A stretch of DNA of 64,000 bases, taken from Escherichia phage wV7. Below, one piece after another: positions 9,946 through 62,999 of the stretch. The notes below the pieces were generated by a model. The model made no database searches. It saw nothing but the letters and a program-made list of their open reading frames with translations, and was not told the DNA's origin. The stretch lies in the sequence record NC_019505.1; one strand, written 5' to 3'. Every line of letters begins with the position of its first letter. Position 1 is the stretch's first letter. A program made the position numbers and the translations under genes.

Positions 9946-10224
9946 TCAAAATGTAATTTCTAACCAATCACCATCACGCTGATCACTATTGACTTTAAAA
10001 TTAAATCCTTCTTTTCTCAGCCAATCACCAATTTCTTCAGTAATCAATTTATCACGAGCAGTACAATAATAACTAAAATATGTTTTACCTTGTTCAGCTG
10101 CTTTATTAGCAAGTTCTGAAAAATCTTTAATAAAACACTCTAGCTTAAACTGTTTACTTTTTAATGCTTTTTCACGTAATTGATTAGCAAAAGATTCATT
10201 TTCATAAAGATCATACTGTTCCAT
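9946..10224 (-). CDS. Hypothetical protein (92 aa, 24.2-like position)
   Basis: ATG start; intact ORF in the T4 24.x position; no recognisable motif. Confidence 0.6.
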   Translation of the reverse strand: MEQYDLYENESFANQLREKALKSKQFKLECFIKDFSELANKAAEQGKTYFSYYCTARDKLITEEIGDWLRKEGFNFKVNSDQRDGDWLEITF

Positions 10225-10414
10225 TTTTCACCTTTTTATTAATGTGTCTTTTTCTATAGACAACTTTTTCTCGAGTCTCAAATTTATTCTTTGCAGTCAT
10301 AGCTCGAGCCCATAATACAGCCACTTCTTTCGCCTGTAAGTTTAATTCACGAGCAATTTCAATGAATGACTTTCCAGACTCATGAAGTGTAAACACCACA
10401 ACTTCAGTTCTCAT
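10211..10414 (-). CDS. Hypothetical small protein with helix-turn-helix-like segment (24.3-like position)
   Basis: ORF track starts at 10426; the internal ATG at 10414 has a better upstream purine-rich site. Start uncertain. Confidence 0.5.
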   Translation of the reverse strand: MRTEVVVFTLHESGKSFIEIARELNLQAKEVAVLWARAMTAKNKFETREKVVYRKRHINKKVKNGTV

Positions 10415-51491: not shown

Positions 51492-54400
51492 ATGGCCGAG
51501 ATTAAAAGAAAGTTCAGAGCAGAAGACGGTCTGGACGCAGGTGGTGATAAAATAATCAACGTAGCTTTAGCTGATCGTACCGTAGGAACTGACGGTGTAA
51601 ACGTTGATTACTTAATTCAAGAAAACACAGTTCAACAATATGATCCAACTCGTGGATATTTAAAAGATTTTGTAATCATTTATGATAACCGCTTTTGGGC
51701 TGCTATAAATGATATTCCAAAACCAGCAGGAGCTTTTAATAGCGTACGATGGAGAGCGTTACGCACTGATGCAAACTGGACAACTGTTTCGTCAGGACCC
51801 TATCAATTAAAATCAGGCGAATCGATTTCAGTTAACACCGCAGCGGGTAATGACATTACATTTACTTTGCCATCTTCTCCAATTGATGGTGATACTATCG
51901 TTCTCCAAGATATTGGAGGAAAACCTGGAGTTAACCAGGTTTTAATTACAGCTCCGGTACAAAGCATTGTAAACTTTAGAGGTCAACAAGTACGCTCAGT
52001 ACTAATGACTCATCCAAAATCACAGATAGTTTTAATTTTTAGTAATCGTCTGTGGCAAATGTATGTTGCTGATTATAGCAGAGAAGCGGCAGTTGTAACA
52101 CCGGCAAGTCTTTATCAAGCGCAATCAAACGATTTTATCGTGCGTAGATTTACTTCTGCTTCAGCAATTAATATTAAACTTCCTAGATTTGCTAATCATG
52201 GGGATATTATTAATTTTGTTGATTTAGATAAATTAAATCCGTTATATCATACTATCGTTACTACATACGATGAAACTACTTCTGTACAAGAAGTTGGAAC
52301 TCATTCCATTGAAGGTCGTACATCTATTGATGGTTTCTTGATGTTTGATGATAATGAGAAATTGTGGAGATTGTTTGACGGGGATAGTAAAGCACGTTTA
52401 CGCATTATAACGACTAATTCTAATATTCGTCCAAATGAAGAAGTCATGGTATTTGGCGCGAATAATGGAACAACCCAAACAATTGAACTTCAGCTTCCAA
52501 CTGATATTTCTATCGGTGATACTGTTAAGATTTCCATGAATTATATGAGAAAAGGACAAACAGTTAAAATCAAAGCTGCCGGTGAAGATAAAATTGCTTC
52601 TTCAGTTCAATTGCTGCAATTTCCAAAACGTTCAGAATACCCACCTGAAACTAAATGGGTGACTGTTCAAGAATTAGTTTTTAATGGCGAAACCAATTAT
52701 GTTCCAGTTTTACAGCTTGCTTATATCGAAGATTCTGACGGAAAATATTGGGTTGTACAGCAAAACGTTCCAACTGTAGAAAGAGTAGACTCTTTAAATA
52801 ATTCTACTAGAGCAAGATTAGGGGTAATTGCTTTAGCTACACAAGCTCAAGCTAATGCTGATTTAGAAAATTCTCCACAAAAAGAATTGGCAATTACTCC
52901 AGAAACGTTAGCTAATCGTACTGCTACAGAAACTCGTAGAGGTATTGCAAGAATAGCAACTACTGCTCAAGTTAACCAGGATACTACATTCTCTTTTGCT
53001 GATGATATTATCATCACTCCTAAAAAGCTGAATGAAAGAACAGCTACTGAAACTCGTAGGGGTGTCGCTGAAATTGCTACGCAACAGGAAACTAATACAG
53101 GTACTGATGATACGACAATCATCACTCCTAAAAAGCTTCAAGCTCGCCAAGGTTCTGAATCATTATCTGGTATTGTAACTTTTGTATCTACTGCAGGTGC
53201 TACTCCAGCTTCTAGCCGTGAATTAAATGGTACGAATGTTTATAATAAAAACACTAATAATTTAGTTGTTTCACCTAAAGCTTTGGATCAGTATAAAGCT
53301 ACTCCAACACAGCAAGGTGCAGTAATTTTAGCAGTTGAAAGTGAAGTAATTGCTGGTCAAAGTCAAGAAGGATGGGCAAATGCTGTTGTAACTCCAGAAA
53401 CGTTACACAAAAAGACATCAACTGATGGAAGAATTGGATTAATTGAAATTGCTACGCAAAGTGAAGTTAATACAGGAACTGATTATACTCGTGCAGTCAC
53501 TCCTAAAACTTTAAATGACCGTAGAGCAACTGAAAGTTTAAGTGGTATAGCTGAAATTGCTACACAAGTTGAATTCGACGCGGGCGTCGACGATACTCGT
53601 ATCTCTACACCATTAAAAATTAAAACCAGATTTAATAGTACTGATCGTACTTCTGTTGTTGCTCTATCTGGATTAGTTGAATCAGGAACTCTCTGGGACC
53701 ATTATACCCTTAATATTCTTGAAGCAAACGAGACACAACGTGGTACACTTCGTGTAGCTACACAAGTCGAAGCTGCTGCAGGAACATTAGATAATGTTTT
53801 AATAACTCCTAAAAAGCTTTTAGGTACTAAATCTACTGAAGCGCAAGAAGGTGTTATTAAAGTTGCAACACAAACCGAAACTGTTGCTGGTACATCATCT
53901 AATACTGCTGTATCTCCAAAGAATTTAAAATGGATCGTGCAGAGTGAACCTACTTGGGCAGCTACTACTACAGTAAGAGGCTTTGTTAAAACTTCATCTG
54001 GTTCAATTACATTCGTTGGTAATGATACAGCCGGTTCTACTCAGGACTTAGAGCTATACGAGAAAAATAGCTATGCAGTATCACCATACGAATTAAACCG
54101 TGTATTAGCAAATTATTTGCCATTAAAAGCAAAAGCTGCAGATAGTAATTTATTGGATGGTCTAGATTCATCTCAGTTCATTCGTAGGGATATTGCACAG
54201 ACGGTTAATGGTTCACTAACCTTAACCCAACAAACGAATCTGAGTGCCCCTCTTGTATCATCTAGTACTGCTACGTTTGGTGGATCAGTTTCGGCAAATA
54301 GTACATTAACTATTTCTAATACTGGAACGGCAACTCGTCTGATTTTTGAGAAAGGACCTCAAACTGGAACAAACCCAGCCCAAACGATGACTGTTAGAGT

Positions 54401-57212: not shown

Positions 57213-60200
57213 ATGGCTACTTTAAAACAAATACAATTTAAAAGAAGCAAAACTGCAGGAGCACGTCCTGCCGCTTCAGTATTAGCCGAAGGTGAATTGG
57301 CTATAAACTTAAAAGACCGTGTACTTTTTACTAAAGATGACCAAGGAAATATTATTGATCTGGGTTTTGCTAAAGGCGGTAGTATTGACGGGAATGTTAT
57401 TCATACAGGCAATTATAACCAAACTGGCGATTATACTTTAAATGGCACATTCACTCAGACAGGTAATTTTAATTTAACTGGTATTGCTCGAGTAACTCGT
57501 GATATTATTGCCGCCGGGCAGATTATGACTGAAGGCGGAGAACTTATTACAAAAAGTTCAGGTACAGCGCATGTTCGTTTTTTCGATGGCAATAGTCGCG
57601 AACGTGGAATCATTTATGCCCCGGCTAATGATGGTTTAACTACACAAGTACTTAATATCAGGGTTCAAGACTACGCCGCTGGTAGCGAAAGCACTTATGC
57701 ATTTTCAGGCAGTGGCCTATTTACTTCACCTGAAGTATCAGCATGGAAATCTATTTCGTCTCCACAAATTCTGACCGATAAAGTTATTACAAATGGGAAG
57801 AAGACAGGCGATTATGACATCTATTCATTAGCAAATAACACCCCATTATCTGAAAGCACTACTGCTATTAATCATCTTCGTGTCATGCGTAATGCCGTTG
57901 GTTCTGGTATTTTCCATGAAGTTAAAGATAATGATGGGATAACCTGGTATGCCGGTGACGGGTTGGAGGCTTATCTTTGGTCGTTTACGTGGTCCGGTGG
58001 GTTGAAAGCGGGTCATTCTATTTCTATAGGTACCCCAGGCGGTCCAAAAGGATATTCTGAATTAGGAACTGCTTCGATTGCTCTTGGTGATAATGACACC
58101 GGGTTAAAATGGCACCATGATGGATATTATTTCAGCGTCAATAATGGAACGAAAACATTTTTATTTAGTCCTAGCGAAACAACTAGCCTAAGAAAATTTG
58201 TAGCTGGATATTCTACTAACGGAACCGATTTAACTACTCCTCCGACTGAAAACTATGCTCTTGCTACTGTCGTGACATATCACGATAATAACGCGTTTGG
58301 AGATGGTCAAACTCTTTTAGGATATTATCAAGGCGGTAACTATCATCACTATTTCCGCGGTAAGGGTACCACAAACATTAATACTCATGGCGGTTTGTTA
58401 GTTACTCCAGGTAATATTGACGTTATTGGTGGTTCTGTTAATATCGATGGTAGAAATAATTCTTCTACACTGATGTTTAGAGGTAACACAACTGGTAGTA
58501 GTTCAGTTGATAATATGACAATTTCCGTTTGGGGCAATACGTTTACTAATCCTAGTGAAGGTACCCGTAAAAATGTTATGGAAATTTCTGATGCAACTAG
58601 CTGGATGAGCTATATTCAACGAACAACTGCAGGTAAAGTTGAATCGGTTATAAATGGCACCCAGATTGTTAATGAAAACTTGACCGTAGTAAAAAATGCT
58701 ACATTTGATGGTACAATCAGCGCAGCAGGTGAAATTTCATCTGGTGCAGTGAATGCGCTTCGCATTTGGAACGCAGATTATGGAGCCATTTTTAGACGTT
58801 CAGAAGGTAGTCTTCATATTATTCCAACTGCTTATGGTGAAGGCAAAAATGGTGATATCGGTCCACTTCGCCCGTTTAGTATGGCTTTAGATACTGGTAA
58901 AGTTACTATTCCAGATTTACAATCAAGTTACAATACGTTTGCTGCTAACGGTTATATTAAATTTGTTGGTCATGGAGCGGGTGCAGGTGGTTATGATATT
59001 CAGTATTCACAAGCTGCTCCTATTTTCCAAGAAATCGATGATGCTGCTGTAAGCAAATATTATCCTATTGTTAAACAGAAGTTTTTAAATGGTAAAGCTG
59101 TCTGGTCTTTGGGTACTGAAATTAATTCAGGTACATTTGTTTTACATCATTTGAAAGAAGATGGTTCACAAGGCCATACATCAAGATTTAATGCTGATGG
59201 TACAGTTAATTTCCCCGATAATGTTCAAGTCGGCGGCGGTGAAGCTACTATTGCTAGAAACGGTAATATCTTCTCTGATATTTGGAAAACATTTACTTCT
59301 GCCGGAGATACTACAAATATTCACGATGCGATAGCTACTCGTGTTGCCAAAGAAGGCGATACGATGACTGGCAAATTAATCGTTAGAAGAGGCTCTGACG
59401 CTATTAACATTGCTGCCGATGAAAATGATTCTTGCTATTTACTTGGAACATCGGGTGGAGCGAATTCATGGTACATCGGTAAAGGAGGAGCAGATGACAC
59501 TGCTTCATTTTATAATTTCAAAACTACCGCAGGAATTACTCTTAATAGTGTTGGTGATATTGATTTTAACGTCAAAAATCAAGCTACTGCAGCTTCATTA
59601 AATTTTTATCGTTTATATTTAAATGGAAGACAATGGACAGCTACACAAGGTCACGGCTATAATAATCAATGGCAAACAGAAGCCCCATTCTTCGTTGACT
59701 TTGGTGAATCTGTTCCGAAAGATAGTTATATGCCTATAATTAAAGGAAGAAGCCAAATCATTAACGAAGGATATGCCACAAAGGCAGATTTTGGTATTAT
59801 TCGATTGGGTGGAAATGCTACTTGGGGAAATGCAGTAATTCGTGTTGGTTCTGCGGAAAGCGGAGATAGCAGTCATCCTAATGCAATATTTGTGTTTCAG
59901 GCTAATGGTGATTTTAAAGCTCCGGTTGGCCTTCGTGCTGGTGTTAACTTGGGCGTCGGCACAATTCCAGTATGGGGCGGAGCATCTATCGCCATCGGGG
60001 ATGATGATACCGGTTTAGTTCATGGCGGCGATGGTCGAATTAATATGTATGCTAACTCGCAGCATATAGCATCATGGGGCACGATGTATCAATCTCATCC
60101 AGGCCTTTGGGATTCAAATGGAGCTTTTTGGACAGAAGTTGGCAAAGCAATTATTTCTCATGGCCATTTAGTTCAGGCGAATGACAGCTATTCAACGTAT

Positions 60201-60557: not shown

Positions 60558-60562
60558 AATGA

Positions 60563-60576
60563 GGGGCTTCGGCCCC
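60563..60576 (+). other. C(UUCG)G hairpin between genes 37 and 38
   Basis: GGGGC-TTCG-GCCCC immediately upstream of the gp38 GGAGG SD. Confidence 0.5.
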
Positions 60577-60588
60577 TTGGAGGTTTAT

Positions 60589-61383
60589 ATGGCAGTTGAA
60601 GGACCGTGGGTAGGATGGTCTGCGAGGGTACAAACTGGAGACCCTTGGATGGGTGGTGCCGCGCTGAGATTGAGAATGGGAATTCCGTTTTGGATGAGTA
60701 ATATGATAGGTCGATCTGTTGAAGTAATTCACACCCTTGGAGCGGACCATAACTTCAATGGTCAATGGTTCCGAGATAGATGTTTTGAGGCAGGTAGTGC
60801 ACCTATAGTGTTTAATATTACCGGAAATTTGGTATCATATTCTAGAGACGTTCCTTTATTCTTCATGTACGGAGATACACCTAATGAATATGTTCAGTTG
60901 AATATTGGTGGCGGCGTCCATATGTGGGGTAGAGGTGGACAAGGTGGATGGACTCATTCCGGCGGAGATGGTAATGGTCAACAAGGTGGTCATTGTATTC
61001 AAAATGACATCGGTGGACGATTAAGAATTAATAACGGTGGAGTAATTTGTGGTGGAGGTGGAGGTGGAGGTGGTATCGCTTATCGTCCTCACTCTGGTGC
61101 AAAATGGCAAGATATTGGTGGTGGTGGAGGAAGACCATTTGGCCCAGGAGGAGGCGGAGGTTATTCCGGCGGCGCAGCTTCTTATGATGGCCCAGGAGGT
61201 GGTTATAATTATGGTAATGCTCACTCTGGCCAGGGTGGTGATGCTGGCGCAAATGGACAAAATGCCTGGCATGATGGCGGTAAAGTTCTAAAAGTTGGAG
61301 CTGGTGGCGCTGCCGGATATGCTGTTATAGGATCAGCTCCAACATGGCAAAATGTTGGAGTAATATATGGTCCAAGGGTATAA
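60589..61383 (+). CDS. 38: gp38 receptor-recognising adhesin, T2-type with glycine-rich motifs (264 aa)
   Basis: ATG at 60589 is preceded by GGAGG; the ORF-track ATG at 60559 overlaps the hairpin and lacks SD. Runs of GGGGGGGG and GPGGGGG separate variable segments. Confidence 0.85.
61051..61270 (+). repeat. Glycine-codon microsatellite-like repeats (GGTGGA)n inside gene 38
   Basis: ggtggaggtggaggtggaggtggt at 61051-61074 and further GGN runs; produces spurious overlapping ORFs in other frames. Confidence 0.7.
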
Positions 61384-61414
61384 TTTTGAATAAATATCCT
61401 TAAAAGGAGGGTCT

Positions 61415-62077
61415 ATGGCAGCACCTAGAATATCATTTTCGCCCTCTGATATTCTATTTGGTGTTCTAGATCGCTTGTTCAAAGATAACGCTACCGGGAA
61501 AGTTCTTGCTTCCCGGGTAGCTGTCGTAATTCTTTTATTTATGATGGCGATTGTTTGGTATAGGGGAGATAGTTTCTTTGAGTACTATAAGCAATCAAAG
61601 TATGAAACATACAGTGAAATTATTGAAAAGGAAAGAAACGCACGCTTTGAATCTGTCGCCCTGGAACAACTCCAGATAGTTCACATATCATCTGAGGCAG
61701 ACTTTAGTGCGGTGTATTCTTTCCGCCCTAAAAACTTAAACTATTTTGTTGATATTATAGCATATGAAGGAAAATTACCTTCAACAATAAGTGAAAAATC
61801 ACTTGGAGGATATCCTGTTGATAAAACTATGGATGAATATACAGTTCATTTAAATGGACGTCATTATTATTCCAACTCAAAATTTGCTTTTTTACCAACT
61901 AAAAAGCCTACTCCCGAAATAAACTACATGTACAGTTGTCCATATTTTAATTTGGATAACATCTATGCTGGAACAATAACCATGTACTGGTATAGAAATG
62001 ATCATATAAGTAATGACCGCCTTGAATCAATATGTTCTCAATTCGTCGATGAGGGTTTTCTTATCTTCTTGGGTTAA
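61415..62077 (+). CDS. t: Holin T (220 aa)
   Basis: GGAGG SD; single N-terminal TM segment (VAVVILLFMMAIVWY) then large periplasmic domain; matches T4 T organisation. Confidence 0.85.
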   Translation: MAAPRISFSPSDILFGVLDRLFKDNATGKVLASRVAVVILLFMMAIVWYRGDSFFEYYKQSKYETYSEIIEKERNARFESVALEQLQIVHISSEADFSAVYSFRPKNLNYFVDIIAYEGKLPSTISEKSLGGYPVDKTMDEYTVHLNGRHYYSNSKFAFLPTKKPTPEINYMYSCPYFNLDNIYAGTITMYWYRNDHISNDRLESICSQFVDEGFLIFLG

Positions 62078-62257
62078 TTCAGAAACAATTTTACGGAATG
62101 AATTCTGATTTAATTTTCTACCTTCATGCGTTACTCCAATCTCATTCAGAAATGCAATAAAATTAGCACGATTCTCAACAATATCTTCTCTGGAAAATTT
62201 AATCAAAATAGACGCAACAGTAATAATTTCACGAACTGTATCAATATTTTTATTCAT
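62027..62257 (-). CDS. asiA: AsiA anti-sigma70 factor, 76 aa with divergent/short C-terminus
   Basis: First ~72 residues match recalled T4 AsiA (MNKNIDTVREIITVASILIKFSREDIVENRANF...); ends as ...LIDELRTY and overlaps the 3' end of t by 51 nt. Confidence 0.8.
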   Translation of the reverse strand: MNKNIDTVREIITVASILIKFSREDIVENRANFIAFLNEIGVTHEGRKLNQNSFRKIVSELTQEDKKTLIDELRTY

Positions 62258-62269
62258 TAACTATACCAC

Positions 62270-62422
62270 TCAATTAGTTGACTTTGTTATAATATCATCA
62301 GACGCTTGATTTGTAAACTGGTCTGTGTTATTTTCTTCAAAAATTTTTTCTACGAATTCCTTGAACGACTCACGTTCCTGAGCTACATTATGCTCGATTA
62401 CCATTTCAAGATTATGACTCAT
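62270..62422 (-). CDS. Possible small ORF (50 aa) coupled to arn stop
   Basis: ATG overlaps arn stop (ATGA); below the ORF-track cut-off; acidic; no SD assessed. Confidence 0.3.
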   Translation of the reverse strand: MSHNLEMVIEHNVAQERESFKEFVEKIFEENNTDQFTNQASDDIITKSTN

Positions 62423-62697
62423 TCGAAATAATCTTCAATTTCGTAATCATGGACGTAAATCATTATAGTTTTTAATACATCATCAATACTTTTTCCTGGA
62501 GCTGGAATTACATAAAAATATCCTGCTTTTGAGAGGTCTTTATAAGTTCCAACCAAGAAATCGTTATTCTCAAGATGTAGTTCTTCAACTAATTCATTGA
62601 CAATTGAGTGGTATAAATTTGGTAGAAACTTATATAGCTTTTCTAGAATATCAATTTTGATTGTATATTGAACCACGGATTGAGAATCAATAATCAT
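62419..62697 (-). CDS. arn: Arn anti-restriction (anti-McrBC) protein (92 aa)
   Basis: Length 92 aa and sequence MIIDSQSVVQYT... consistent with recalled T4 Arn. Confidence 0.8.
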   Translation of the reverse strand: MIIDSQSVVQYTIKIDILEKLYKFLPNLYHSIVNELVEELHLENNDFLVGTYKDLSKAGYFYVIPAPGKSIDDVLKTIMIYVHDYEIEDYFE

Positions 62698-62780: not shown

Positions 62781-62999
62781 TTATGTTTTGCGACTAAATT
62801 GTTCATAGTGCTGAATTACCTCTCTTAAACATTTGCATGTGAATGAAAACTTTTTAGCTACACCACATTCAAATATATGTTCTCTTAAATCACGTGTATC
62901 GGTATATCCCATCTCAACAATAAAATGCCGTATTAAATTTTTATCTTTATCATTGAGAGAATTAAAATAGTCAGATTTTGAATTAATTTCCCTGGCCAA
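62781..62999 (-). CDS. Hypothetical Cys-containing small protein (start uncertain; TTG at 62999 or ATG giving 44 aa)
   Basis: No ATG at the ORF-track start; first in-frame ATG is 28 codons downstream. Confidence 0.35.
   Translation of the reverse strand: MAREINSKSDYFNSLNDKDKNLIRHFIVEMGYTDTRDLREHIFECGVAKKFSFTCKCLREVIQHYEQFSRKT

Follow-up and report, generated by a model that had tools for sequence, protein, structure and literature searches.

[quoted passage not shown] AsiA Δ74–90 (Pal et al. 2003, reviewed in PMC2988021) exhibited wild-type toxicity to Escherichia coli and normal co-activation of PuvsX, and AsiA Δ47–90 retained some activity and still bound σ70 region 4 (PMC2988021). Cryo-EM (Shi et al. 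2019, PMC6755090) revealed that A6 swings into the RNA exit channel, with R82 contacting β D1310, M86 contacting Y1305, and N74 bonded to the flap residue E898; in the same work, ΔA6 AsiA still yielded a notable level of complex. A truncation of this kind has also been recovered in a phage. In the Serratia T4-family phage PhiCHI14, AsiA E71stop arose as a spontaneous ToxIN escape mutation and the mutant is viable, with an efficiency of plating on ToxIN-bearing cells of 0.15 versus 1.6e-8 for the wild type (PMC5449768, PMC5772629); ToxIN-escape asiA alleles have been read as preventing full shutoff of host transcription (PMC10853763). For the holin T, the deletion constructs Δ19C, Δ70C, and Δ125C still lyse, with Δ19C causing only a slight delay, and the globular periplasmic domain of the protein is regulatory (PMC12162936). 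The same study reported that C-terminal fusions to T lower holin function and that the periplasmic protease DegP prefers hydrophobic C-termini. The functionally mapped RI interface on T involves R104, Y110, and F111, not the tail (PMC11413866).

The window analyzed here is a stretch of 64,000 nt from Escherichia phage wV7 (NC_019505.1). Judged by its sequence, it is a near-clone of E. coli O157 typing phage 7 (KP869105), a T4-like phage of the genus Tequatrovirus. Base-by-base comparison of the two showed that 87 bp are absent from the window (positions 10194–10280 of the KP869105 record, equivalent to L001 2142–2228), and in KP869105 the missing segment reads GGCGGCCAGAATATTAGGAAGGGCTAAATAATTATTTGTTTGTATACATCTCTAGATATCGATATACACCCTCAAAACCCTCGTTGA. 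It holds t codons 210–218 with the stop (AARILGRAK in translation), asiA codons 74–90 with the stop, and the final two bases of asiA codon 73. The flanks of the junction are 100% identical to KP869105, the microhomology at the breakpoints amounts to 1 nt, and there is no flanking repeat. The event is a clean 87-bp deletion that gives AsiA Δ73–90 plus LRTY, T Δ210–218 plus 11 amino acids, and the loss of a hairpin (Table 1).

Several other origins for this junction were eliminated. The 87 bp and the lost peptide were sought elsewhere in the 64-kb window, which yielded only chance matches of ≤11 nt, so that translocation within the window is ruled out. A frameshift is likewise ruled out because the bases are simply absent, and, as originally predicted, reading in another frame does not recover a T4-like AsiA tail. 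Repeat-mediated slippage is ruled out by a microhomology of only 1 nt. The breakpoints coincide with the edges of two predicted hairpin arms, which is suggestive only. The original prediction had spoken of a rearrangement at the t/asiA junction, a term that does not fit the event: compared with every relative examined, the window has undergone a simple deletion, with nothing inserted, inverted, or relocated within it.

Comparison with the corresponding T4 junction (NC_000866 160221..160877 and complement 160878..161150), which had been proposed as a check, revealed the same genes in the same order and convergent orientation, with asiA followed by asiA.1 and arn in both phages. In T4, T has 218 aa, AsiA has 90 aa, the two stops abut, and the hairpin is intact, whereas the window has 87 bp fewer, a 51-nt overlap, and a destroyed hairpin. 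The t and asiA stops abut without an intergenic base in T4 (160877/160878), in KP869105 (10224/10225), and in CCU7 (844/845); they are separated by 3 nt in STML-198, and the range among relatives is 0–3 nt. Because the deletion crosses two abutting stops, each gene runs into the antisense of the other, and the overlap is a passive consequence. The two frames share the same codon register within the overlap. As originally described, the asiA stop codon (TGA, 62027–62029) lies inside t and the two reading frames have 51 nt in common.

Table 1. Features of the t/asiA region of the window, with positions numbered from its first nucleotide.
Feature	Position	Strand	Remarks
t (holin T), variant of 220 aa (218 in relatives)	61415..62077	+	residues 1–209 native, 210–220 new
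New 11-codon T tail, FVDEGFLIFLG	62042..62074	+	codon-for-codon antisense of asiA codons 72 to 62
asiA, truncated variant of 76 aa	62027..62257	-	residues 1–72 native, then LRTY; helix A6 (73–90) absent
Four new codons of asiA (L R T Y), the antisense of t codons 209–206	62030..62041	-	direct reading and breakpoint mapping
Convergent t/asiA reading-frame overlap, 51 nt	62027..62077	.	from the ORF list; made by the deletion
Deletion junction	62040..62041	.	prefix identity ends at 62040, suffix identity begins at 62040; a single A is common to both edges
Hairpin remnant, loop ATTCG and right arm TCGATGAGGGTTTT	62041..62059	+	14-nt left arm deleted

The truncated AsiA has the sequence MNKNIDTVREIITVASILIKFSREDIVENRANFIAFLNEIGVTHEGRKLNQNSFRKIVSELTQEDKKTLIDELRTY and ends in KKTLIDELRTY, which bears out the earlier description of a protein shortened to 76 aa with a diverged C-terminus and a T4-like stretch of about 72 residues. 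A PDB sequence search aligned residues 1–73 with T4 AsiA (1JR5 and 6K4Y; 90 aa), and residues 1–72 were identical, with L in place of the T4 F at position 73. The window protein matched the Pfam AsiA family (PF09010) with 131.2 bits (cut-off 25) over profile positions 1–73 of 85; the full-length relative matched over 1–85 of 85. All eight of the AsiA residues listed in PMC2988021 as contacts to σ70 region 4 (E10, V14, I17, L18, K20, F21, F36, and I40) are kept. By contrast, the residues through which the family makes its A6 contacts are gone, 73–90 being replaced by LRTY, and with helix A6 the C-terminal surface is lost, a region where an alteration had been anticipated. An AF2 model of the 76-aa protein (mean pLDDT 88) contained helices at residues 4–20, 24–28, 30–39, 51–59, and 63–75. 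The model hints that helices A1–A5 are kept, but such models are insensitive to stability and for that reason the support it gives is weak.

The same deletion altered the holin, a change overlooked in the first reading of the sequence. The last nine residues of T, the conserved AARILGRAK, are swapped for eleven unrelated ones, so the family tail QA[AV]R[IT]LGRA[KR] is absent from the window protein. The net charge of the tail shifts from +3 to -2 and its mean hydropathy from 0.04 to 1.54, and the new tail ends in the hydrophobic FLIFLG. The periplasmic residues Cys175 and Cys207 are both kept. Window T matched PF11031 with 374.8 bits (cut-off 22.2) over positions 1–225 of 233, whereas T of KP869105 matched over 1–233.

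The third element affected is a terminator-like hairpin that is intact in KP869105 (L001 2215–2247). It consists of 14 pairs, AAAACCCTCGTTGA-ATTCG-TCGATGAGGGTTTT, and is followed by CTTATCTTCT. In KP869105 and T4 (positions 161,0xx) it lies 43 nt past the t stop, within asiA codons 67–77. The hairpin dominates the predicted fold (z-score -3.6) and is the sole terminator-like site in the 1.3-kb region scanned around t and asiA. The deletion edge falls exactly at the loop, and the whole left arm is gone, which the first reading also overlooked; a search for a terminator-like site in the window found none. As a separate observation, the hairpin, which would serve late t transcripts, is embedded at the A5/A6 hinge of AsiA, with the segment encoding KTLIDE pairing with that encoding FNEGF. 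The idea of a conserved bidirectional terminator was unsupported, as the hairpin occurs in T4 and KP869105 and is absent from CCU7, HX01 (Mosigvirus), and STML-198 (Gelderlandvirus). Because of these absences, we give the function of the hairpin little weight.

The junction was not encountered outside the window in the collections searched. Megablast with 61400–62500 returned 579 phage records, and the listed ones all matched as two pieces covering 1188 nt versus the 1101-nt query. Across 50,697 phage records, a 131-nt probe always matched as two pieces spanning 218 nt, and a 46-nt junction probe had no match. A wild-type 187-nt probe was at least 80% covered in 513 phage records and matched as a single piece in 60/60 rows sampled across the ranking. 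Searches for the junction in IMG/VR, in GTDB genomes, and in E. coli genomes and plasmids gave no match, and the only JGI metagenome match (L002) was dismissed as a chance match with unrelated flanks. Exact-protein look-ups for the 76-aa AsiA and the 220-aa T indicated that neither is on record.

Both lost segments are conserved among relatives. Full-length AsiA homologues down to ∼55% identity have 88–91 aa, apart from one that is extended at the C-terminus to 132 aa; the motif EFNEG[FY]..[VI]YR[HY][LM].M is preserved in all, and F73, N74, E75, G76, R82, and M86 are invariant among them. In IMG/VR, AsiA has 90 aa in each of 14 loci, and the T tail IC.QA[AV]R[IT]LGRA[KR] is present in all 13 loci with a readable tail, even at AsiA identities of 56–59%. 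Conservation of the T tail extends across several genera. This conservation indicates that both segments are under purifying selection and that the state of the window is derived; it also implies that their loss should cost fitness. A different disruption of the region was observed in an 880-bp ENA metagenome contig (P0010), whose predicted 71-aa protein fuses AsiA residues 1–28 to the last 43 residues of the 62781..62999 ORF. The two parts relate to window positions 62174–62257 and 62781–62999 and meet at an IVE motif that both contain. Either the contig is chimeric or it bears another deletion, far larger than the one described here, which would take away most of asiA, asiA.1, and arn.

We also compared the full window (1–64000) with KP869105. 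Besides the 87 bp, there were two reliable substitutions, one contig-end mismatch, and the N-gaps of that record in gp34. The substitutions, at 59926 (gp37 A905V) and 61104 (gp38 N172K), are both nonsynonymous and affect receptor-binding tail-fibre proteins; the chance that 2/2 reliable substitutions would be nonsynonymous and fall in gp37/gp38 is ∼0.004. Sa45lw and KIT03 carry the KP869105 allele at both sites, so the window alleles are derived. N172K sits between glycine-rich motifs of the gp38 adhesin, a region that determines host range. In gp34 (window 51763–52285), KP869105 is scaffolded with runs of 10–100 N and overlapping contig ends. The mismatch at 51763 corresponds to a contig end of KP869105, where the overlapping copy in that record matches the window. 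Because the window runs unbroken through the gp34 gaps, it represents a different and cleaner assembly than KP869105. These features suggest a genuine sister lineage, replicating under host-range selection and sequenced independently of KP869105, a pattern that makes the deletion more believable as real without proving it.

Two annotation details of the window were noted in the course of this comparison. A 72-aa ORF on the minus strand (62781–62999), with a TTG start and overlapping its neighbours, is annotated in Sa45lw (Sa45lw_265) and not in KP869105 or KIT03; as Sa45lw is alone among the three in this respect, annotation is inconsistent among close relatives. The mechanically derived gp38 ORF (274 aa) begins 30 nt upstream (60559–60588) of the start used in relatives (264 aa, ATG at 60589) and overlaps the gp37 stop; the annotated start at 60589 is probably the real one.

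The altered AsiA resembles the laboratory proteins Δ74–90 and ΔA6 in that the same helix is removed and the σ70-binding N-terminal half is intact, with residues 1–73 or similar kept in those constructs and 1–72 in the window. Those constructs were studied on plasmids or in vitro, whereas the window variant is encoded in a phage genome, carries the four foreign residues LRTY, and is linked to a change in the holin. The asiA alleles of PhiCHI14 and PhiCBH8 are alike in having the AsiA C-terminal domain removed or scrambled, and those phages are known to be viable. PhiCHI14 E71 aligns with T4 D71, two residues ahead of the break in the window (after E72), so the E71stop product corresponds to AsiA 1–70 versus 1–72 here. 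The window thus has the sequence hallmark of the ToxIN-escape alleles, namely loss of the AsiA C-terminal domain near residue 71 in a T4-family phage. PhiCHI14 and PhiCBH8 differ in belonging to Winklervirus, in having another host, and in carrying a point mutation or small frameshift obtained under known selection. Furthermore, t and asiA are 17 nt apart in PhiCHI14 and its holin is unaffected, whereas in the window the holin is changed too. Window T lacks its native end, just as T Δ19C through Δ125C lost the C-terminal surface helix of the periplasmic domain and kept hole formation. It possesses ten more native residues than Δ19C, Cys207 included, and has a hydrophobic tail, whereas the deletion constructs bore mEGFP and a charged FLAG tag. 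What is new is the joint and natural occurrence of both truncations through one deletion in a T4-type coliphage genome, each kind being already known from the laboratory.

We consider it probable that the phage truly carries the deletion and can grow with it, with AsiA weakened and the holin working. The most serious competing account, which we judge unlikely though still deserving of attention, is that the deletion is not in the phage and stems from an assembly or consensus error or a post-assembly edit, the real genome encoding a 218-aa T and a 90-aa AsiA. The junction is unique among ∼500 Tequatrovirus genomes and absent from all other collections searched, the loss falls on strongly conserved stretches of two genes required by T4, and an isolated 87-bp difference is conspicuous in a window that otherwise matches KP869105 almost perfectly. 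Against an error, assemblers skip sequence between repeats, whereas the edges here have a single base in common; the flanks are perfect, and the assembly is the cleaner of the two and contiguous where KP869105 has gaps in gp34. Moreover, both frames stop after just 4 and 11 extra codons, yielding truncations that are tolerated in experiments, and the remaining differences from KP869105 resemble genuine selected mutations.

Two further accounts accept the deletion and place it differently. It might reside in a defective or minority genome that would not grow alone and is propagated in a mixed lysate with the help of wild-type phage infecting the same cells. The strong purifying selection on both lost segments favours this account, and P0010 with its grossly deleted asiA indicates that broken variants of the region do get assembled; however, consensus assembly normally gives the majority allele, and variants closely equivalent to the two truncations have proved functional in experiments, one of them in a plaque-forming phage. 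We regard this account as quite improbable. The smallest chance of all is given to selection through the holin, in which the changed T tail would alter lysis timing or inhibition to produce a large-plaque, rapid-lysis-like phenotype and the loss from AsiA would be collateral. The rV mutations that cause rapid lysis map to t, and the tail of T, which is conserved across genera, has gone from basic to acidic and hydrophobic in the window. The regulatory role of the globular periplasmic domain (PMC12162936) also fits such selection, but the slight delay caused by Δ19C in that study does not, the mapped RI interface lies at R104, Y110, and F111 and not in the tail (PMC11413866), and a literature search for experiments on T residues 210–218 found none.

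Returning to a real deletion in a growing phage as the preferred reading, the published truncations suggest that both shortened proteins would still work. By analogy with those constructs, the truncated AsiA should still bind and remodel σ70 and support MotA-dependent middle transcription. With the A6 contacts to the β C-terminal region (R82 and M86) and the contact of N74 with the flap tip lost, the σ-appropriation complex should lose stability, and host promoters that depend on the -35 element would be expected to be inhibited less strongly. The altered T retains its cytoplasmic, transmembrane, and bridge helices, its RI interface (R104, Y110, and F111), and the Cys175–Cys207 pair; it should still make holes, perhaps with changed timing or stability. 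Such a phage would be viable and weakened in AsiA and holin functions. The deletion might have been selected, or a bottleneck, for instance plaque purification, might have fixed it. One possible selection is for evading an abortive-infection system of the toxin-antitoxin kind that responds to the shutoff of host transcription. More speculatively, and in our estimation doubtful, the deletion could be an adaptive counter-defence allele in a typing-phage-7 lineage adapting to a new E. coli host. Host adaptation would then show in gp37 A905V and gp38 N172K, with A6 lost alongside, and the loss of A6 would blunt σ70-dependent host shutoff and leave labile-antitoxin defences (ToxIN-like type III) untriggered.

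The significance of these results depends on which account holds, as an artefact would leave the finding without biological meaning. If the deletion is real, a T4-type coliphage able to form plaques without A6 would provide an in vivo answer on the AsiA C-terminal region, and wV7 would be the first Tequatrovirus phage known to live without this helix. It would also extend the only known biological use of such alleles, ToxIN escape in Serratia phages, to phages of E. coli. The same deletion would also offer a direct way to probe the basic tail of T, which is highly conserved but unexplained.
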